The notes below the pieces were generated by a model, which saw only the letters and a list, made by a program, of their open reading frames with translations, searched no databases and was not told the DNA's origin. The translations under genes and the position numbers were made by a program. From IMG/VR virus record IMGVR_UViG_3300045591_000031: a DNA stretch of 43,180 nt. One strand, written 5' to 3'. Positions 128-43,180 of this stretch are shown piece by piece. Origin of the DNA: a virus. The stretch's first letter is position 1, and every line of letters starts with the position of its first letter.

Positions 128-139
128 TTTAAATGTAAA
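112..139 (-). promoter_or_regulatory. Sigma70-like promoter upstream of avd/DGR: -35 TTTACA, 16-nt spacer containing G7, TGt-GATAAT extended -10
   Basis: Minus strand reads TTTACA(139-134) tttaaagggggggtgt GATAAT(117-112). The -35 lies in the last codons of the tail-fibre gene. The avd SD (GAGGTG) and ATG (86-84, equal to 43139-43137) follow. Confidence 0.45.
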
Positions 140-818
140 CTGCTCCGGAACCAAAAGATCCGGAGATCAGCTTGACATCGCTTGCGGCATCGATCGTGTC
201 CACCATGATGCACTTGTAATCAGAGGAGTCGATCAGGCTCTGGATCCGGAGTTTGAAGACTGTCCTCGTGATGTCTCTGTGCAGGTGCCCGACCAGGTTA
301 AGAGTCTGTTGATTGATCTGATCGGTGGCTGCATCAATCATGCTCTGCGCAGTTGACCGGGAGATCCAGGCAGTGCCGTCCACTGTGATGTTTACCGACG
401 ATGCACTGGCGATCGCCAGCACGATATCCTCGGTGATGCTGATCGGATATTTGCCGTCATATGCAGGGATTGTCTCCCCGGAGTCCGTTGCATAGGACGC
501 GGCAAAGATGATACTGCCTTTGTCCGGATCTGCCGCATAGATCGCAGACTCTGTCCACTGATAGGCAGCAGTTGTTGCGGCTTTGTTGTCCACGTCTACC
601 GTCAGATGGACTCCGGTGTCATCCGGAAGTGCAGAGACGGACCCAAAAGTAAAAGAGTCCATCTCCTTTTTTAGCGAGGTCAGCCCTGCAATATCAGCGG
701 CTGTCAGCGTTCCGGATCCGATTTTAAAGCTGATAAGCTTAAGAGCAGTAGTGCCGGACATCACCTTTTCAAGCAGGGTTTCACCCGCGTTGGTTAGAAT
801 AAAATCTGAAAAAGCCAT
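129..818 (-). CDS. Tail fibre / tail-collar fibre-like protein (229 aa)
   Basis: The N-terminus MAFSDFILTNAGETLLEKV... resembles the N-terminal collar domain of P2 gpH-type fibres. It is the last gene of the baseplate block. Confidence 0.55.
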   Translation of the reverse strand: MAFSDFILTNAGETLLEKVMSGTTALKLISFKIGSGTLTAADIAGLTSLKKEMDSFTFGSVSALPDDTGVHLTVDVDNKAATTAAYQWTESAIYAADPDKGSIIFAASYATDSGETIPAYDGKYPISITEDIVLAIASASSVNITVDGTAWISRSTAQSMIDAATDQINQQTLNLVGHLHRDITRTVFKLRIQSLIDSSDYKCIMVDTIDAASDVKLISGSFGSGAVYI

Positions 819-3894: not shown

Positions 3895-6708
3895 TCACAC
3901 CTTCTTCAGCACCTGGAATGTTGTGTTGTTAAATCGGCCAATCTTAGACAGGCCGTGCGCTCTGGCATAAGCGGCAGAGCAGTGGACATCAATACCAAGA
4001 CCATGCCAGGTTGGGCCACCCTGTGCTTCCTCGTAATCGACAACTTTCAGGATCTTACCGTTTAGTGGATGTCGGCTGTCTGTGATCTTGATATAGCTCC
4101 CCCGCGGAACTTTAGAAAAGTTGTTACTTGCTACGCACAGACCTGTCCAGTCCTTGACGGCGGTCCGCTTGAGCCAGCTCCCGTAAGGGGTAGTGTAATA
4201 CGAAAAACTCGCCTTGAGCGTCTTCGCTATCTTGTACTCGCCCTTGGATGTGGTCAGCCTGCCGTGCTTATTAACTGATGTTATCTTCGAGCTATCCGCC
4301 TTCTTTTGCGGAGTGGACAGTGACGTGAGCTCTGCACTGCTGACCCAGCCTAAGACCTTAGTCTTTTTCTCGACCTTTTTATACTTGATCGTCAAGCTCT
4401 TAGCGTCGCCTGGCTTATAATTTTTATCCGTATGATAGATCAGGATGCCCTTTTTCCCATGCGTCCGATCGTCCACGGTGTACTGTTTCCCGTTGATCGT
4501 GACTTTGGAGCCAATCGGGAGCCAGTCACAGGCGCAGGAGTGATTTGTGAGCTTGCGGCCAGTTGAGCCATTGCCGGACTTGCTCGTGTAGCCCTGCACG
4601 CTGACCGCCTTTTTCTGCCATTTGGAGTAGGTCGGAAGGCTCTCGATCTGGTATGTGTACTTGCCTTTCTTGTCCACCTTCCGGATCTTAACCTTCATAC
4701 CGCCTTTGATCTTTGTGGCTTTTCCGCCTTTAGATGAGCTATGCACATATCCGCCCTTAAACTTGGCCTTGCTTCCCTTTTTCCGGTAAGTCTTGCCGCC
4801 GTTGGAGCTGTTGATCTTATGCATCTCAATCTCCTGCGTGTAAAATCCGGAAGAAGACGGCTGATGCGTGACTTGATCCAGAAACCACTTGCCCGCGAGC
4901 TTGCCCCAATCGGAGGACAGCTTGACGGTGTTGGCGGCCTTGACTTTCTTGTAGCCTCCGGGGATCGTCATAGTTAGCTTTTCGATTCCCTCATTGGCCT
5001 GAGCCATCTTGTACTTGGCGATCCTCTTGGCGTCGGCCTTATCGTATCCGGCCGTATCTACCGCCAGAGTCCGGGAGATGTTGTGCTTATGGACGACTCT
5101 CACTGTCTTCAGTTTAGCGTTCTTCCGGTTTTTCCCTTTGCCTTTCCCGAGGTACACGTAGCTGTATACCGTCTTGCGGAATACCCGTTTAACGGCCACC
5201 TGATTGGAGTACTCTTTGGTGGTGGTGTAGTTCTTTCCCGTTGACTTATAGACCCGGGACTTATCCACCCCGGAGTCATTTCCTCCGTCAATTCCCAGAT
5301 GGATATATCCCAGGATCCCAGATGTGCGGTGGACCTTTCGGCACATGAGCGCACCAGATGTCCCGCCCCGGGTATTCCCCTCATAGGTCTCGATGTTATG
5401 CGCACTGTGCACCTTATAGACCAGGCCCACATGCTGCACGGAGGATCCGCCAGAAAAATTAAATACTACTGCATCCCCTGGGTGAGGCGTGTGGGACCAT
5501 CTGCCGTGCTGGATCGCCCAGTTTTTCCAGTTCGGCGCATAATCCGGATTAGGCAGGCCCGCTATAGCGTGCCCATTCCCTGATTTTCGCAAGCACCACC
5601 GGACGTAGGCTCCACACCATGGCCCAGGCTGCCCGTATTTACTTCCGGACCTTGTGCCTATCTGCGATCGGCAGGTTTTAAAGAGATCCGCGAGCTTTCC
5701 CGTGGCCTTTGAGGCGCTCCGCATCCAGACCTTTTTGGTGTAAGTTTTGGTTGTGGCGATCTTGGCCCAACCATCGTCATAGAGCTTAACCACTTTCAGC
5801 CGGGCGCCCTTTTTAAAGGTGCCTGTTGACACCGCATGCCCGCTCTTACTCTTCCGGGCTTTCACCGGGCGTTTAAGCGTAGCCTGCTGGTAGTAGGTGT
5901 AGGTCGTCTTGATTTTTTTATGGCCAACACTGACCTTGACATCCTTCTTTTTCTTTTTGTCCTGATAGGTGTTGGTCGCGTAGGTATAAGCGCCCAGGAT
6001 ATCATTGGTGTACTCATATCCCGACGCCGCCACCGACCGCTTGAGGGTAACAGCAGCGGCTTTCTGCGCATACCTTGACGCACTATATACATACAGCGTC
6101 CGGTTGGTGATCTTAACCCGGAGGCCGTATCGCTCACACAGATCAATTACAAAATCGCTGTCCGTCGCCCCGTCCTGCTGGATCGTCTTAACCTTGATCG
6201 TCGGTCCGTAGTACTTGAGCGTCATTTTGTTCCGGCTTGCAATCTTTTTAATAATCGCTTTAGCCGTTGTCTTTTTATAGGTTTTGTGGTGCTCCGTCGA
6301 GGAAAAGCCAGAGTATGATGGCATGGACAGCGCCTGCACGCTGACAGCCTCCGGCTCCGGTCCTGAGATGCTCGCACTGTCTACATACATCTTGCCAGTC
6401 TTGATCGTCGTGTCTGGCTGGATCGTCCAGTCCTTGGTCTTTATTGCGAGCGTAGCCGTCGAACCCTTAGCGGGAAGCCCCTTTTTAAGATAATTAAGGT
6501 CGCTGTTATCCAGGGAAAACTCCGCACTATCGCTGGACCCGTGGGCCACATCCGTGTAGGTGGCGGAGTCGATCAGCCTGGAGGAGACGCTCCGGCCTCC
6601 GAGCGTTGCAGTAACGGAAATAGACCGAGGATTCTGCGTCGTTCCGGAACTGGTCTTCTTGGAGTTTGCTTTGACCTCCTGATTAACTTTTGCCTTGGAT
6701 GTTGTCAT
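3895..6708 (-). CDS. Baseplate hub (late control gpD / Mu gp44-like) fused to an SH3-like domain, a CHAP peptidase domain and two C-terminal 3D/RlpA-like DPBB domains (937 aa)
   Basis: gpD-like N- and C-regions (SRLIDSATYTDVAHGSSDSAEFSL..., KWFLDQVTHQPSSSGFYTQEIEMHK). CHAP motifs: GPWCGAYVRWC (Cys near 5612) and VQHVGLVY (His near 5435). 3D-like segments: GYTS..STGRKL..CACDWLPIGSKVTINGKQYTVDDR and VASNNFSKVPRGSYIKITD...ILKVVDYE...GIDVHCS. Confidence 0.75.
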   Translation of the reverse strand: MTTSKAKVNQEVKANSKKTSSGTTQNPRSISVTATLGGRSVSSRLIDSATYTDVAHGSSDSAEFSLDNSDLNYLKKGLPAKGSTATLAIKTKDWTIQPDTTIKTGKMYVDSASISGPEPEAVSVQALSMPSYSGFSSTEHHKTYKKTTAKAIIKKIASRNKMTLKYYGPTIKVKTIQQDGATDSDFVIDLCERYGLRVKITNRTLYVYSASRYAQKAAAVTLKRSVAASGYEYTNDILGAYTYATNTYQDKKKKKDVKVSVGHKKIKTTYTYYQQATLKRPVKARKSKSGHAVSTGTFKKGARLKVVKLYDDGWAKIATTKTYTKKVWMRSASKATGKLADLFKTCRSQIGTRSGSKYGQPGPWCGAYVRWCLRKSGNGHAIAGLPNPDYAPNWKNWAIQHGRWSHTPHPGDAVVFNFSGGSSVQHVGLVYKVHSAHNIETYEGNTRGGTSGALMCRKVHRTSGILGYIHLGIDGGNDSGVDKSRVYKSTGKNYTTTKEYSNQVAVKRVFRKTVYSYVYLGKGKGKNRKNAKLKTVRVVHKHNISRTLAVDTAGYDKADAKRIAKYKMAQANEGIEKLTMTIPGGYKKVKAANTVKLSSDWGKLAGKWFLDQVTHQPSSSGFYTQEIEMHKINSSNGGKTYRKKGSKAKFKGGYVHSSSKGGKATKIKGGMKVKIRKVDKKGKYTYQIESLPTYSKWQKKAVSVQGYTSKSGNGSTGRKLTNHSCACDWLPIGSKVTINGKQYTVDDRTHGKKGILIYHTDKNYKPGDAKSLTIKYKKVEKKTKVLGWVSSAELTSLSTPQKKADSSKITSVNKHGRLTTSKGEYKIAKTLKASFSYYTTPYGSWLKRTAVKDWTGLCVASNNFSKVPRGSYIKITDSRHPLNGKILKVVDYEEAQGGPTWHGLGIDVHCSAAYARAHGLSKIGRFNNTTFQVLKKV

Positions 6709-38751: not shown

Positions 38752-39050
38752 TACTCCTCACCTCCCTTGCTCGTTGACTCAATGATGTCCTCGTCTGTCA
38801 CGCTCTCATCCTTGCGCTCGATGTCATCTCTTGAGGCATCCGCCTCTGCATATGCCGCAGCATCCAGCTCAGGCAGTCCGGCGATGCTGGTAAGCAGGCT
38901 CAAAATTGCCGCCAGCACAGATGCCGACAGCACCATCCGCCAGTCTACGGATTCGAGTGCCGCCGCCGTTCCGATTGTGGCTACTGCAGTCTGCGCCAGC
39001 GTTTTGATCGCCCTAATTCCTGCCGCTTCAATCCATCTCTTTTCTTTCAA
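38751..39050 (-). CDS. Holin (99 aa)
   Basis: IRAIKTLAQTAVATIG plus a second hydrophobic segment (VLSASVLAAILSLLTSIAG), and a charged C-terminal tail. Lies immediately upstream of the endolysin gene. Confidence 0.6.
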   Translation of the reverse strand: MKEKRWIEAAGIRAIKTLAQTAVATIGTAAALESVDWRMVLSASVLAAILSLLTSIAGLPELDAAAYAEADASRDDIERKDESVTDEDIIESTSKGGEE

Positions 39051-39064
39051 ATCCTATTCCCTCC

Positions 39065-39418
39065 CTAATTGCATCTAATTGATCGCCAGTACTCCGTGTC
39101 CCGGCGTTCCGCTTCCGTTTCGCTGATCAGCTCCAGATTTTTAACATCTTTCCAGATTTTCTCACCGGTGCCGTTTCCTCCCATGCTGAGGTACGGTACA
39201 GCAAAGCGCTCCAGGTTATCCAGCTCTGATTTTGTGATCCCTTTTCTCCTGAGATACTGCCCGCCGAGATACCATATTCTGTCGTGGGCGATGCCAAGGA
39301 TCAGCTTCTGCTCGTCGGACAGCTTTTTCCTGTGCCTTCCAATTTCAAATTTTAAGAGTTCCCACAGCCCCGACCCACCTAATACGGCGCACAGGAGCTG
39401 CCAAAAATTATCACTCAT
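39065..39418 (-). CDS. Membrane-anchored hypothetical protein of the lysis region (117 aa)
   Basis: N-terminal TM helix (FWQLLCAVLGGSGLWELL). Position upstream of the holin gene. Confidence 0.45.
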   Translation of the reverse strand: MSDNFWQLLCAVLGGSGLWELLKFEIGRHRKKLSDEQKLILGIAHDRIWYLGGQYLRRKGITKSELDNLERFAVPYLSMGGNGTGEKIWKDVKNLELISETEAERRDTEYWRSIRCN

Positions 39419-39429
39419 AAATCCCTTCT

Positions 39430-39460
39430 TTAAAATACAAGAGCGGGGCTTTTGTCCCGC
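39430..39460 (-). terminator. Rho-independent terminator after the DGR-target operon
   Basis: Minus strand reads gcgggac-aaaa-gccccgc (39460-39443) followed by tcttgtatttt. Confidence 0.55.
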
Positions 39461-39466
39461 AAGTTG

Positions 39467-39646
39467 TTAAGCTGTAGCTTCAGTGTCCTTTTTGACTGCG
39501 TAGCCGTCTGCTCCGATCTCATAGCCGTCTGCTGTCAGCACGGCATCAACGTCATCTTTAAAGGCTTTGGCGTATCTTGGAATTTTGAAAAATGCGTTGT
39601 AGTTGAGTCTCCGCGCTTCGACCTGCATGCAAATATAAAGTACCAT
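39467..39646 (-). CDS. Small hypothetical protein (59 aa; below the ORF-track cutoff)
   Basis: Hand translation: MVLYICMQVEARRLNYNAFFKIPRYAKAFKDDVDAVLTADGYEIGADGYAVKKDTEATA. Preceded by GGAAAGGAG. Confidence 0.4.
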   Translation of the reverse strand: MVLYICMQVEARRLNYNAFFKIPRYAKAFKDDVDAVLTADGYEIGADGYAVKKDTEATA

Positions 39647-39664
39647 AATGGCTCCTTTCCGGCG

Positions 39665-39826
39665 CTACTGCGCCTTAGCGTCTGTAGTAGTAGTGGATGT
39701 ATCGTCAACAGCGGAAGTGTCCGCTGAGGACATCAGAATGTAATTGATTGCGTCCTGCGTAGCCTGCAGCTGTTCCTGCAGGTCCTGGATCGCTGAGCTT
39801 TCTTTCGGTTTAAATTCCTGGCGCAT
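39665..39826 (-). CDS. Small hypothetical protein (53 aa; below the ORF-track cutoff)
   Basis: Hand translation: MRQEFKPKESSAIQDLQEQLQATQDAINYILMSSADTSAVDDTSTTTTDAKAQ. Its ATG overlaps the target stop (TAATG). Confidence 0.4.
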   Translation of the reverse strand: MRQEFKPKESSAIQDLQEQLQATQDAINYILMSSADTSAVDDTSTTTTDAKAQ

Positions 39827-41436
39827 TAAATCACCCCCAGACTAATTGCGCTGATACTGATCTCTCCTGTGGCCTTGCCTGCAGTGATTCTGATCTTGAC
39901 TGCAGCGGACCACTTGTCGGCTGTCTTGGAGTTGTTGTTAAAAGTGTGAATGGAGTCAGGTGTGTAAGACTCCCATGCTGGAGAGGCATCCTCAGCATTG
40001 TTGCAAACCCACATCTCCGCAGTCGCCTTGCTGTCAATGCTATCCTGAAGGAAGACGCTGATGCTGGTCGGCTGGCTATCGAGGTCATATGGCAGAGTCT
40101 GCACCTCCAGGACGTTCCCGATCTTGATCCTGATAGCCGGTGAGTAGGATGGTGTCAGAGATCCTGCGTCTGTAGAAACTGCCCTCACATAGACCTCTGT
40201 CCCCAGGGTCTGTCCGGTGACTTTGATCCGGATGCGCTTTCCAGCATCATCATTGGTGACCGTCTCTGCGCTTTTCCAGGTGTTTGTCGAGGTGTCATAA
40301 ACCTCTGCTCCCGTGTACTCTTTGACGGAGGCAAAGTCCGAAGAGGCTGAGACCTGCACCTTGAGCGTCTGTGCATCCTTTTCTGCGTCAGTGCCGGTGA
40401 CTATTTCTGTGTAAAATTCTGCAGGCTGCCTGAGTCCTGTCACCAGATTGCTGATGGTAGGCGCTGCAGCAGATGAGTTGGTCTTGTTAAAGGTATACGT
40501 GGCCGTAGTTGCTGCAGCGTTGCTGTCAGTCACTACGACCTTAATGGTATGACTGGCGAGTGACAAGGAGGCCCAGTACTTGCTAAGATCAATCGTGTGT
40601 GACGCGTTCGCGGTGCCGGAAAAGGTCTCAATCTGCGAGTTATCAAGCAGGATGCTTCCGGTCATACTGTCGCCATCGCTGTCAGTCGCTGTTACCGCAA
40701 TTTTAAATGCAGCCTTACAATCGCCGTAATCCTTACTTTGTGGCGAAACCACAGGGGCAGTGTTCAGGATTCGGAGGGCGGGCCGCCACCCGTAGTAATA
40801 GTTGTAACCGTAGTGGTAATTGCTACCCCAGTAGCGCGCGCCGATGTAGCCACGGAGCGGCCTATAGTCAGAACCGTTTGAAGTTTCCGTCTCACTGCAC
40901 CAACTGTAACATCCAGCCCAGTGCCAAAGTGCCCCATTCGCAGAAGTATAGTCGGCAGACGCTAAGTTAGTATCCAGATCTGCGGAGTTTGGCTTTGGCA
41001 GTCCGCTGATATTACCGAGACCTCCGATATAGCGATCCCACTGATTGGATGTATCCGAAGAGGACGTACCTCCCGTCAACATAAAGAGCTCATACTTTGC
41101 GCCGTCAATGGTGATGGTCTTTCCGCTGCCTTTTTTACCGCAGTATCCTAAAGCGTTGAGTCGGTCCCATGTAATATTTACAACCAAATTACGGTCGCAG
41201 ATCAGGAGCCTGTCTGATCCGTCATTGACCTCGACCCATCTAAGCTTATATGCATCAGAGCTATCTGTGTTTCCAATCGTAATTGCAGTGCTGGTGCTGT
41301 TATTGTTATTGTAGATATTACCCGCGGAAGACTGTCCATCAGGGGTACTGTCAGGTCTCCACGGCTTAGTTGGATAAGGCTGCTTGCTTCCACCGCAGTA
41401 GAGCGTTCCAAGTTTGATGATATCGCCTGTAGCCAT
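39826..41436 (-). CDS. DGR target (variable) protein: N-terminal C-type-lectin/FGE-like fold ending in the VR (aa about 193-220), followed by about 316 aa of Ig-like/beta-rich domains (536 aa)
   Basis: Contains the VR. The sequence ...WHWAGCYSWCSE...RPLRGYIGARYWGSNYHYGYNYYYGWRPAL is typical of CLec-fold DGR targets. SD GGAAAGGAG lies 30 nt after the RT stop. Confidence 0.9.
   Translation of the reverse strand: MATGDIIKLGTLYCGGSKQPYPTKPWRPDSTPDGQSSAGNIYNNNNSTSTAITIGNTDSSDAYKLRWVEVNDGSDRLLICDRNLVVNITWDRLNALGYCGKKGSGKTITIDGAKYELFMLTGGTSSSDTSNQWDRYIGGLGNISGLPKPNSADLDTNLASADYTSANGALWHWAGCYSWCSETETSNGSDYRPLRGYIGARYWGSNYHYGYNYYYGWRPALRILNTAPVVSPQSKDYGDCKAAFKIAVTATDSDGDSMTGSILLDNSQIETFSGTANASHTIDLSKYWASLSLASHTIKVVVTDSNAAATTATYTFNKTNSSAAAPTISNLVTGLRQPAEFYTEIVTGTDAEKDAQTLKVQVSASSDFASVKEYTGAEVYDTSTNTWKSAETVTNDDAGKRIRIKVTGQTLGTEVYVRAVSTDAGSLTPSYSPAIRIKIGNVLEVQTLPYDLDSQPTSISVFLQDSIDSKATAEMWVCNNAEDASPAWESYTPDSIHTFNNNSKTADKWSAAVKIRITAGKATGEISISAISLGVI
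40778..40861 (-). repeat. DGR variable repeat (VR), 84 bp
   Basis: 73/84 identical to the TR. All 11 differences are at TR adenines (coding strand). Encodes ...R YWGSNYHYGYNYYY GWRPA. Confidence 0.95.
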
Positions 41437-41466
41437 GCTTTCTCCTTTCCACTAAAAAAGACACTC

Positions 41467-42525
41467 CTAAGAGTGCCTCTTTCCAAATTTCCAATTTTTA
41501 TCCTCTACCTTGACGTAGGGGTACTTAGCAAAAATTTTATTTGCAAGGTTGTAACTGTTGCTGTGCCTTGCGTGTCCGAGCCAGCTATTCACAGACTGTT
41601 GGACTGCCTTCTCATCGATTAAGCCTTCTTTGAGCTTTCTGTCCATTGCCTTGATCCGGCGCTTCATGGCGCGCTTGCTCTGATCTCGGACTAATTTATG
41701 GTCCGTGTAGATTTTAAAGCCTAAAGTGTTGATCCCCTGCCGGATCGGATAAATCTGTGTCTTCTGGTTAAACTTCAGATGCAGGCGATCCTGGACAAAC
41801 TTCCTCATCTTAGCAAGGATTGCCTTGGCTGTCTGCTTGTCCCTGACGACGATTGTGATATCGTCCATATACCGGACGTACCATTTAAGCCCCAGATATC
41901 TCTTGCAGTATTGATCGACCTCGTTGAGATAGATGTTGGCAAAGTCCTGAGAGGTGACGTTTCCAAGCGGGATGCCCCGATCACCCTCCGGACTGCTGTC
42001 TACGATCATATCTAAGAGCCATAGAAAGTCAGCTTCCTGCTTCGGTATCTTTTTCCGGTAAATCCGTTTTAAGACATCCCGGTCGATCGAGTAGAAAAAT
42101 TTCTTCACATCGGCCTTGATGATATAAGGATCATCGTACATATAAGCAGCTGTCCGCATCATGTGCTGGATCCGGTCTACTGCCTTATGCGTGCCTTTAC
42201 CCTCAAGGCATGCGTAAGAGTCCTTGATAAAGACAGGCCTGTAAATTTCCTGCAGCACTAGATGCGTGGAAAACTGCACCAGCTTGTCTATGGTGTGAGG
42301 TGCATGCACCAGACGCGCTTTCGGCTCGTAAACGTAAAACTCGATGTATCGTCCAGGTCGCCACTTCTTTTCCTTAAGGGCTTTCCACAGCTTCGCCAGC
42401 CAGTACTCTTTTGCGCTGGCCAGACGGAAGGACCCAGTCTTATACTTTCTGGATCCCAGCTGAGTCTGCTTATAGGCTCTTTTTAAGTTGTCATAGTCAT
42501 AAACCTGTTCATAAAATGTCGGCAT
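41467..42525 (-). CDS. DGR reverse transcriptase (352 aa)
   Basis: IPLGNVTSQ matches the DGR-specific [I/L]GxxxSQ motif. VRYMDDITIV is the YxDD catalytic box. The protein is compact, with no maturase/endonuclease or retron-type extensions. Confidence 0.95.
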   Translation of the reverse strand: MPTFYEQVYDYDNLKRAYKQTQLGSRKYKTGSFRLASAKEYWLAKLWKALKEKKWRPGRYIEFYVYEPKARLVHAPHTIDKLVQFSTHLVLQEIYRPVFIKDSYACLEGKGTHKAVDRIQHMMRTAAYMYDDPYIIKADVKKFFYSIDRDVLKRIYRKKIPKQEADFLWLLDMIVDSSPEGDRGIPLGNVTSQDFANIYLNEVDQYCKRYLGLKWYVRYMDDITIVVRDKQTAKAILAKMRKFVQDRLHLKFNQKTQIYPIRQGINTLGFKIYTDHKLVRDQSKRAMKRRIKAMDRKLKEGLIDEKAVQQSVNSWLGHARHSNSYNLANKIFAKYPYVKVEDKNWKFGKRHS

Positions 42526-42679
42526 AAAGGCATACTCTCCAGTCTTGGCTTTATGTCATTACTCTTGTGTTTACGCATTGCGAAGGATTACCGCTCCCCT
42601 ATCTGACTTTTATCAGTCTGCCAGGCAAGCCGTAGCCGGCCTGGTCAATCGTGCTTATCACTCTGATACTCTCGATAGC

Positions 42680-42763
42680 GCGGGCCGCCACCCGTTGTTA
42701 TTGTTGTAATTGTTGTGGTTATTGTTATTCCAGTTGCGCGCGCCGATGTAGCCACGGAGCGGC
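42680..42763 (-). repeat. DGR template repeat (TR), 84 bp
   Basis: Non-coding, between avd and RT. The coding-sense strand carries 11 AAY codons (N W N N N N H N N Y N N N N) and 26 adenines. Confidence 0.95.
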
Positions 42764-42791
42764 AGGCAAAACAGCAGTAACCCTATAGGTC

Positions 42792-43139
42792 CTATCTTAA
42801 GGACCGCATCAGCCCTCCGCAGATTCTTCCAAGCTCAGCAAGGCAGGACTGCAGATACCAGGCCTTTTTCTCTGTGATGTATTTCTGGTCTCGCGCCACA
42901 TTGAAAAGTACCTTGAGATACTGGATCTCTGCGTCTATCCGTCTTAAGTACAGCATCTTCTCTTTCTGCATCGCTGTCTTATACAGCGCGCAGTTCCTCA
43001 GGATTCGGTAGTGGGCCTGTTTGATCTCCTGACACAGCGCAAATTTTTCTGCCTGCGGAAAATGCTTAAGCATCGGATAAATTATGGTATTGAGCAGTAT
43101 CTCGGTCTTTTTCTGCAGTTTGAGCGTAAAATCATCCAT
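42792..43139 (-). CDS. avd: Accessory variability determinant (Avd-like four-helix-bundle protein), 115 aa
   Basis: KHFPQAEKFALCQEIKQAHYRILRN matches the FPK.EK..L..Q..RA..S signature of the Avd / S23-IVS four-helix-bundle family. Basic and helical. Start at the ATG at 43139, preceded by GAGGTG (the ORF track begins at a GTG at 43160). Confidence 0.75.
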   Translation of the reverse strand: MDDFTLKLQKKTEILLNTIIYPMLKHFPQAEKFALCQEIKQAHYRILRNCALYKTAMQKEKMLYLRRIDAEIQYLKVLFNVARDQKYITEKKAWYLQSCLAELGRICGGLMRSLR

Positions 43140-43180
43140 TATCATGCACCTCACAGCCACTTATATTATCACACCCCCCC
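43054..43180. repeat. Second copy of the 127-bp terminal overlap
   Basis: Identical to 1..127. Confidence 0.9.

Follow-up and report, generated by a model that had tools for sequence, protein, structure and literature searches.

The 43,180-nt viral sequence of IMG/VR virus record IMGVR_UViG_3300045591_000031 (hereafter, at its full length, the window) carries on its minus strand a complete and very likely functional diversity-generating retroelement (DGR), with all parts present. The reading adopted here, to which we assign a probability of about 0.92, is that of a functional DGR of a temperate P2/Mu-like myophage from human-gut Clostridia, working by the mechanism proposed below. A re-read of positions 39700-43180, together with the listing of open reading frames (ORFs), gives the minus-strand order avd, template repeat (TR), spacer, reverse transcriptase (RT) and target gene, the last of which contains the variable repeat (VR):

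42792-43139, minus strand: avd, accessory variability determinant, 115 residues (Pfam bAvd, PHROG 3206)
42680-42763, minus strand: TR, 84 nt, with 26 adenines and 11 AAY codons (Y, pyrimidine; TR/VR alignment)
41467-42525, minus strand: DGR reverse transcriptase, 352 residues (Pfam RVT_1, PHROG 1423, PDB 8ub7_A)
41454-41483, minus strand: hairpin of 13 bp followed by a U-run, probable intrinsic terminator (folding, dG -17 kcal/mol, z -4.3)
39826-41436, minus strand: target gene, 536 residues (AlphaFold2 model, fold matches, PHROG 36643)
40778-40861, minus strand: VR, target residues 192-220, terminating in an invariant GWRP (TR/VR alignment)

The ORF listing bears out the positions that an earlier note, made from the letters of the window, had given for the Avd-like ORF (43139->42792), for the RT (42525->41467, with its IPLGNVTSQ motif and YMDD box) and for the 536-residue target (41436->39826), and the re-read of the minus strand likewise returns the 154 nt that the note had counted as separating TR from RT. 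The avd gene starts with ATG, with GAGGTG located 7 nt upstream, and its 5' end lies inside the 127 bp that are repeated at the two ends of the circular assembly. The hairpin at 41454-41483, which was missed by a consensus terminator scan and found by folding, is flanked by an A-tract and a U-tract, and the RT stop codon TAG falls within its loop. This hairpin is probably an intrinsic terminator that separates the avd-TR-RT unit from the target gene.

A scripted comparison shows that the TR (42763->42680) and the VR (40861->40778) align without gaps over 84 positions at a constant offset of 1902, with 73 of the 84 positions identical. All 11 mismatches are found where the earlier note had placed them, each on a coding-strand TR adenine (6 A>T and 5 A>G); similarly, the count of 26 TR adenines, the 11 AAY codons (9 of which are changed) and the translations of both repeats agree with that note. 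The changed sites are 11 of the 26 adenines and 0 of the 58 other positions (Fisher p=4.2e-7), which excludes a chance origin of the adenine pattern. No third TR-like copy and no second, remote VR are present within the window. TR/VR mismatches at non-adenine positions, which had been named in advance as evidence against a DGR, amount to 0 in the window, and 72 of the 73 mismatches in six related elements fall on adenines (p about 1e-41). These six elements are the window itself, L008, L009, L017, L018 and L019, with RTs 79-100% identical (93% for L008 and 79% for L009), where the RT identity of L017, L018 and L019 is deduced from TRs and flanks that are nearly identical. The earlier note's figure of 15^11 peptides stands as a lower bound and falls short as a full figure, given four more adenine-bearing codons (TAC, ATC, CAC and TAC); with all 15 such codons (11 AAY plus these 4), the repertoire is about 2.2e15.

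The final 14 nt of the TR (42680-42693), GGGUGGCGGCCCGC, form a G/C-rich block in common with the 3' 14 nt of the VR (40778-40791). This element, GGGTGGCGGCCCGC, which resembles the initiation of mutagenic homing (IMH) sequence, is common to the TR and VR 3' ends, and the two diverge directly past it; the sequence 3' of the VR starts with CCTCCGAATCCTGAAC. TR/VR homology extends 3 nt beyond the 84-mer (87 nt in total), over one position, 42679/40777, where the TR has G and the VR has C. This difference, at which similarity stops, is kept in all relatives and marks the 3' boundary of the repeat pair. As a separate observation, one TR codon of the window, ATC (42746, residue 198), is AAC in five sister TRs, so that one diversifiable codon is lost, and the window VR also has T at this site. 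ATC may have arisen by mutation in the TR and then been copied, or sequence may have flowed back from the VR to the TR.

Evidence of activity comes from the 90%-identity protein cluster of the target, which has 78 members. Among 21 target orthologues (85-95% identical), the per-column entropy amounts to 1.26 bits for the VR and 0.18 elsewhere. The variable VR columns are exactly the adenine-bearing codons, and G196, G199, A200, R201, W203 and the terminal GWRP are invariant. In four orthologue pairs with 0 differences among 509 flanking residues, 8-12 of the 27 VR residues differ, and a fifth pair with 1 flanking difference in 509 differs at 12 VR residues; the VR distance between orthologues is uncorrelated with flank divergence (r=0.09). 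Given that flank-identical orthologues carry different VRs, the VR has been rewritten recently and repeatedly in this phage species. The statement of the earlier note that the element is or recently was active thus holds at the level of the species (8-12 VR differences beside identical flanks); in the clone represented by the window, a single VR recurs across four samples. Absence of TR-templated VR variation, another finding that the note had listed as contrary evidence, is not what public assemblies display: in the 21 orthologues the variation is visible and is confined to the codons with TR adenines.

Among the six related elements, lineage-specific TR variants at positions other than adenine (alignment positions 10, 13, 16, 30, 38, 47, 58, 65 and 68) are mirrored in the cognate VR, which demonstrates concerted evolution from TR to VR. 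More distant relatives (Bacillus, Brevibacillus, Kurthia and viral contigs) show similar TR/VR behavior. The pooled adenine replacements in the six elements consist of 32 A>G, 28 A>T and 12 A>C, with no change to C in the window. Codons for Tyr, Gly, Ser and Asp abound in the VRs, as in antibody binding loops. The replacement bias presumably reflects selection on top of the RT error spectrum.

Two relatives depart from the layout of the window. The 2.3-kb metagenome contig L007 (OCTW010586045.1, positions 540-680), from a phage 90-94% identical to that of the window, joins the equivalent of window position 128 to that of 41508, i.e., the stop codon of the tail-fibre gene to the last ~14 RT codons, the terminator hairpin (also kept here) and the target gene. 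The avd gene, the TR and most of the RT are deleted, and the VR, still diversified at A sites, is an orphan, frozen VR. The junction contains no long repeat suggestive of mis-assembly, and in a check of the frequency of this deletion, three other short contigs retain the RT. In L015, a Lachnospiraceae metagenome-assembled genome (MAG; positions 4964-5815) with an RT 34% identical to that of the window, the VR lies upstream of the TR, so that both gene orders occur within reach of the window RT family.

The protein sequences identify the same system. The RT matches Pfam RVT_1 (5e-19) and PHROG 1423 (5e-120), and its best PDB relative is 8ub7_A (E 3.3e-48, 168 bits, full length, residues 5-330), followed by group-II-like or retron-type RTs at 77 bits. 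The entry 8ub7_A is identified as the Bordetella bRT because the residue numbers D138, I181, G182, Q187, D215, D216, F66, R74 and I76, published for bRT (bioRxiv 10.1101/2023.10.23.563531), coincide. The residues equivalent to bRT D138, F66, R74, Q187, D215, D216 and G182 are conserved in the window RT, the exceptions being I181->L and I76->V, and the (I/L)GxxxSQ motif is conserved as well. Placement of the RT outside the DGR clade had also been named as contrary evidence; by score, the RT groups with bRT (168 versus 77 bits), and Avd adjoins. An NCBIfam search with the RT is headed by name by the group II intron maturase TIGR04416 (120 bits, cutoff 300), because this library gave no DGR-RT family for the protein; retron St85 scores 64 bits (cutoff 235). 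The product of avd matches Pfam bAvd PF22296 (E 5.6e-20, 72 bits, cutoff 40) and PHROG 3206, "Avd protein of DGR" (8e-22).

The RNA around the TR and in the spacer contains the following elements:

42773-42784, minus strand: 5' strand of a 12-bp long-range duplex, AGGGUUACUGCU, pairing with 42584-42595
42674-42678, minus strand: TR 3' flank CUAUC, candidate template strand of a template:primer mini-duplex, pairing with spacer GAUAG (42599-42603)
42557-42646, minus strand: structured spacer RNA, Rfam RF03080 (RT-9), cmscan score 52 bits, gathering threshold 46.1
42621-42644: hairpin of 10 bp with a UACG loop, right after the TR (RT-9 spacer, helix test)
42574-42582: short stem-loop right after the duplex (RT-9 spacer, helix test)
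42562-42573: A-rich tail, GUAAACACA, after the stem-loop (RT-9 spacer)

In the helix test, the regions between the avd stop and the RT start of 12 relatives were aligned, and four helices, first read from the sequences, were scored. Of the 30 pairs, 20 are compensatory on both sides, and 86% of the cells are paired; slid partners reach no more than 46%, and the observed values were reached by 0 of 500 shuffles. Because the alignment of the duplex 3' strand is off by 2 columns for the Kurthia-type relatives L013 and L025, these pairing values are slightly understated. The 12-bp duplex, whose 3' strand AGCGGUAAUCCU lies in the spacer (42595->42584), joins the segment directly 5' of the TR to the spacer and thereby brackets the TR; 6 of its 12 pairs are compensatory across the relatives, with 92% of the cells paired. 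The 5-bp CUAUC/GAUAG helix, which becomes UUG/CAA in the Bacillus and Brevibacillus relatives, is 87% paired.

In the published RNA of phage BPP-1, the avd:Sp duplex termed "cPRT Stop" is followed by a stem-loop and then by A-minor adenosines, a template:primer duplex formed by TR and Sp lies two nucleotides upstream, and stem-loops follow the TR, a set of features reported as recurring across 207 DGRs (bioRxiv 10.1101/2023.10.23.563531). The helices of the window match the architecture of this ribonucleoprotein. The 12-bp duplex corresponds to the "cPRT Stop" duplex, and, by analogy, the CUAUC/GAUAG helix would serve in priming.

The spacer match covers the full RT-9 model (1-92), and RT-9 is also detected at the same position in six relatives (53-85 bits); all these are full-model matches above the gathering score. 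A conserved stretch that is single-stranded in the Rfam model pairs here with the segment beyond the far side of the TR. The motifs RT-1 to RT-19 were described as RNAs near RT genes, with RT-10 alone tied to DGR and with the speculation that further RT motifs would prove DGR-linked (Weinberg et al. 2017). Among the papers that could be searched, none links RT-9 with DGRs. Here RT-9, so far an orphan, is a DGR spacer RNA.

Under the proposed mechanism, the avd-TR-spacer-RT unit would be transcribed, and the RNA would fold such that the 12-bp duplex links the segment 5' of the TR to the spacer, with the stem-loop and the adenosine-rich tail after it and with the 10-bp UACG hairpin placed just 3' of the TR. 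The 5-bp helix between the TR flank and the spacer would then place a spacer nucleotide to prime the synthesis of complementary DNA (cDNA) by an RT-Avd complex. The RT would copy the TR faithfully save opposite adenines, and the cDNA would replace the VR, with the common G/C-rich 14-mer as the 3' limit; given that the TR and the VR differ past the 14-mer, the transfer would be one-way. The outcome would be the re-randomization of 15 codons (11 AAY plus 4) in a 27-residue patch at the end of a lectin-like domain. In this scheme, we infer the cis-priming, the part played by Avd and the chemistry of homing by homology with BPP-1.

The AlphaFold2 model of the full target (pLDDT, predicted local distance difference test, 93.7; alignment of 57 sequences) consists of an alpha/beta domain at residues 1-228 (41436->40753), the last strands of which bear the VR, and three immunoglobulin (Ig)-like beta-sandwich domains, about 310 residues, at 229-536. 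The earlier note was right about the target ORF and the placement of the VR within it, to which can be added that the VR is internal, not C-terminal: it lies in frame in the middle of the protein (192-220 of 536), at the end of the N-terminal domain, with the three Ig-like domains after it. VRs are usually C-terminal, since their cis elements need non-coding sequence, and tail fibres with Ig-like domains beside an uncharacterized VR domain are rare (Roux et al. 2021, PMC8144416).

No significant match to the VR domain was found in Pfam, NCBIfam or PDB with either the single sequence or the 57-sequence profile. Because a Foldseek search with the full-length model gave just generic Ig/FN3 arrays, the N-terminal domain was modelled separately (pLDDT 95.7; pTM, predicted template modelling score, 0.92). 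All its PDB matches belong to the FGE/C-type-lectin fold family (PvdO, FGE, Treponema TvpA, EgtB and PorK). The matches in BFVD are better and are to "virion structural proteins" of phiKZ-like jumbo phages (E 3e-9, template modelling score (TM) about 0.5), and PHROG 16120, "virion structural protein", matches target residues 75-247. The jumbo-phage matches are paralogous and come from PhiPA3 (gp082), PS119XW, 201phi2-1, EL and Erwinia jumbo phages; they are not known DGR targets. On the evidence of these models, the VR domain probably adopts a divergent lectin-like fold. As for the rest of the protein, the target belongs to PHROG 36643, and its homologues carry Big_9/Big_13 domains. From gene position and predicted fold, the target is most likely a receptor- or ligand-binding virion adhesin; attachment at the baseplate or fibre is suggested by the position of the gene and by the lack of another long fibre, the only other fibre candidate in the genome being a protein of 229 residues.

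Several observations weigh against this reading of the element and its target. The Avd protein scores 75 bits with NCBIfam DivGenRetAVD, slightly below the cutoff of 80. No hairpin or cruciform of the BPP-1 type is conserved downstream of the VR, where the sole stem, TGTGG/CCACA, is not conserved in L007, L008, L017 or L019. The PDB fold matches of the N-terminal domain are weak (best E 3.7e-3, TM 0.3-0.4). Homologues of the target are annotated as "Hoc-like head decoration", and its place in the virion and its ligand are putative. Finally, in five contigs from four samples with an identical RT, the TR and VR are identical throughout. With regard to the second of these points, DGRs do not all possess such a hairpin or cruciform, and its absence is no bar to DGR membership.

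An alternative, in line with the annotation of the homologues, casts the target as a Hoc-like decoration of the capsid or tail whose ligands, for example mucin glycans, are not those of the host, instead of a tail fibre for host receptors; in this case, the DGR would tune adherence to the environment and not host range. The three C-terminal Ig-like domains and the PHROG match "Hoc-like head decoration" over residues 225-422 (3e-21) are compatible with this possibility, as are reports on the homologue from Faecalibacterium phage FP_Mushu, which has been so annotated and discussed (PMC5883640) and whose gene is reported to be expressed in lysogens (PMC10805732). However, the label rests on generic Ig domains alone, the gene ends the baseplate/fibre module, right before lysis, in all relatives, the genome contains no other long fibre, and such targets have been re-read as tail fibres with Ig domains (Roux et al. 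2021, PMC8144416). We therefore regard a decoration function as rather unlikely and prefer an adhesin of the baseplate or fibre. If a lectin-like domain on an Ig stalk does bind mucus or other non-host ligands, the result would be a phage-borne, antibody-like adherence system.

A second alternative, which we consider improbable, accepts the element as complete and takes it to be quiescent or decaying in the window clone, with the VR as a frozen record of past homing, either retained through selection for a good binder or as yet not diversified again. Three of the identical-RT contigs are 100% identical over 6-9 kb. One contig, from another sample (L001/L005), is 100% identical over the DGR (2546 bp) and differs by 32 substitutions, all within 2020-2410; this stretch of ~400 bp in the baseplate-J gene has the look of a recombination patch. 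Given the identical VR in all identical-RT contigs, the window clone shows no VR turnover at the consensus level, and quiescence gains from the fact that the four samples with the same VR include this recombinant with a 1.3% divergent baseplate segment, from the diversifiable codon lost in the window TR (ATC for the AAC of the sisters) and from L007, in which a diversified VR without avd-TR-RT demonstrates that loss occurs. Against it, the three ORFs, the catalytic residues, the RNA helices and the G/C-rich boundary are all intact, minor alleles stay hidden in consensus assemblies, a prophage is expected to be stable while it resides in a lysogen, one strain may be common to the four samples, and sister lineages with identical flanks carry different VRs.

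The last alternative posits an ordinary duplication whose copies drifted apart through point mutation or gene conversion, beside an unrelated group II intron- or retron-type RT. In its favor is the maturase name at the top of the NCBIfam list, at 120 bits far under the cutoff of 300. It is refuted by the adenine-only mismatches (p=4e-7 in the window, about 1e-41 in the family), by the RT, whose closest structural relative is bRT with a lead of 90 bits, and by the adjoining RNA, which is RT-9 with DGR-type helices; in addition, Avd is present, and an Rfam scan of 39000-43180 detects no intron or retron (msr/msd) RNA family. The probability of this alternative is negligible.

The genomic context is that of a complete phage. 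Positions 1-127 and 43054-43180 of the window are identical (127 bp), which indicates a circularly closed genome with a unit length of 43,053 bp; the circular junction falls inside avd, and the DGR spans it. The genes adjacent to the element on the circle are:

129-818, minus strand: tail-fibre N-terminal-like protein, 229 residues, immediately upstream of avd (PHROG)
819-1403: P2 gpI-like gene, preceding the fibre-like gene (PHROG)
1396-2841: baseplate-J gene, preceding the P2 gpI-like gene (PHROG)

The baseplate-J, gpI-like, fibre-like and DGR synteny is identical in relatives. The genome modules include tape measure, tail lysin, gpU/gpW-like proteins, baseplate J, P2 gpI-like protein and the fibre N-terminal-like protein, the DGR is followed by three small ORFs, holin and amidase, and a tyrosine integrase is encoded together with helix-turn-helix (HTH)/ribbon-helix-helix (RHH) regulators on the opposite strand. 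This is the genome of a temperate P2/Mu-like myophage. A 937-residue tail protein (3895-6708, minus strand) contains an internal endolysin-like (CHAP/lysozyme) region and, judging from its sequence, is a probable tail-associated lysin. Relatives are located in human-gut Clostridia and Eubacterium MAGs and in one 180-kb bacterial contig; a megablast search with the cassette against GenBank phages gives no match.

We tentatively consider, as a possibility with the odds against it, that the window phages and Mushu-like phages make up a DGR subclass in which the VR lies in the N-terminal third of the target and RT-9 serves as the cis-priming/"cPRT Stop" RNA. With the VR in this position, the 3' requirements of homing would have to be encoded in conserved coding sequence (GWRP-ALR(I/V)LN), and an internal VR, should the subclass be real, would contradict the rationale that cis elements must be non-coding. 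An actively diversifying family with an internal VR in any case qualifies the usual explanation of C-terminal VRs. The present analysis also adds a complete, closed-genome Mushu-type DGR from an uncultured phage of gut Clostridia, for whose species public data already show VR rewriting, and, for a VR domain that goes unrecognized in sequence databases, a structural model of high confidence. It ties the orphan RT-9 to DGR spacer RNA and extends this motif by a long-range helix across the TR, in agreement with the cryo-electron microscopy of BPP-1.

Among characterized systems, the Treponema denticola protein TvpA (PDB 2y3c) and other DGR proteins with the FGE-type lectin fold share with the target the G-aromatic-R-P sequence at the domain end. 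The fold likeness to the N-terminal domain is weak (TM 0.3-0.4, E above 1e-3), and in the window the VR domain is succeeded by Ig-like domains that span about 310 residues. The DGR of BPP-1 (mtd-avd-TR-brt) resembles the window element in full-length RT homology, including active-site and fingertip residues, in Avd, in adenine-specific mismatches, in the G/C-rich 14-mer at the VR/TR 3' end and in an RNA with a duplex between the upstream segment and the spacer, a stem-loop, adenosines, a post-TR hairpin and a short helix joining TR and spacer. The two differ in that the target lies downstream of the RT in the window and upstream of avd in BPP-1, the VR is internal and followed by coding sequence in the window and C-terminal in BPP-1, the window element lacks a conserved post-VR hairpin or cruciform, and its spacer matches Rfam RT-9, not RT-10.

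The closest isolated phage by protein search is FP_Mushu (Mushuvirus mushu, NC_047913), the target of which is 36% identical over 98% of its length. The two phages have in common the order baseplate J, P2 gpI-like, small ORFs or short fibre, avd, TR, RT and target, and the FP_Mushu record annotates "Avd protein of DGR", RT and "Hoc-like head decoration protein". The FP_Mushu TR lies between avd and RT, with 11 of 11 TR/VR mismatches at adenines, and its internal VR (about residues 149-180 of 574) terminates in G(F/W)RP ahead of Ig-like repeats; the adenine-only mismatches, the internal VR with this ending and the Ig-like region after it are shared with the window. The TR sequences differ, and so do the backbones, Mushu being a transposable Mu-like phage whereas the window phage encodes a tyrosine integrase, and the hosts (Faecalibacterium versus Clostridia/Eubacterium-like). 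Hypervariable VR reads have been reported in Mushu virions after one induction (Cornuault et al. 2018, PMC5883640), and a 2024 study found the divergence of Mushu between ancient and modern genomes to be centred on the VR and concentrated in the target gene (PMC10805732). Given these reports, both the architecture and the activity of Mushu-type elements are already known. Our findings leave the understanding of DGRs unchanged, and the window element is an ordinary member of a well-known DGR system, with a Mushu-type layout.

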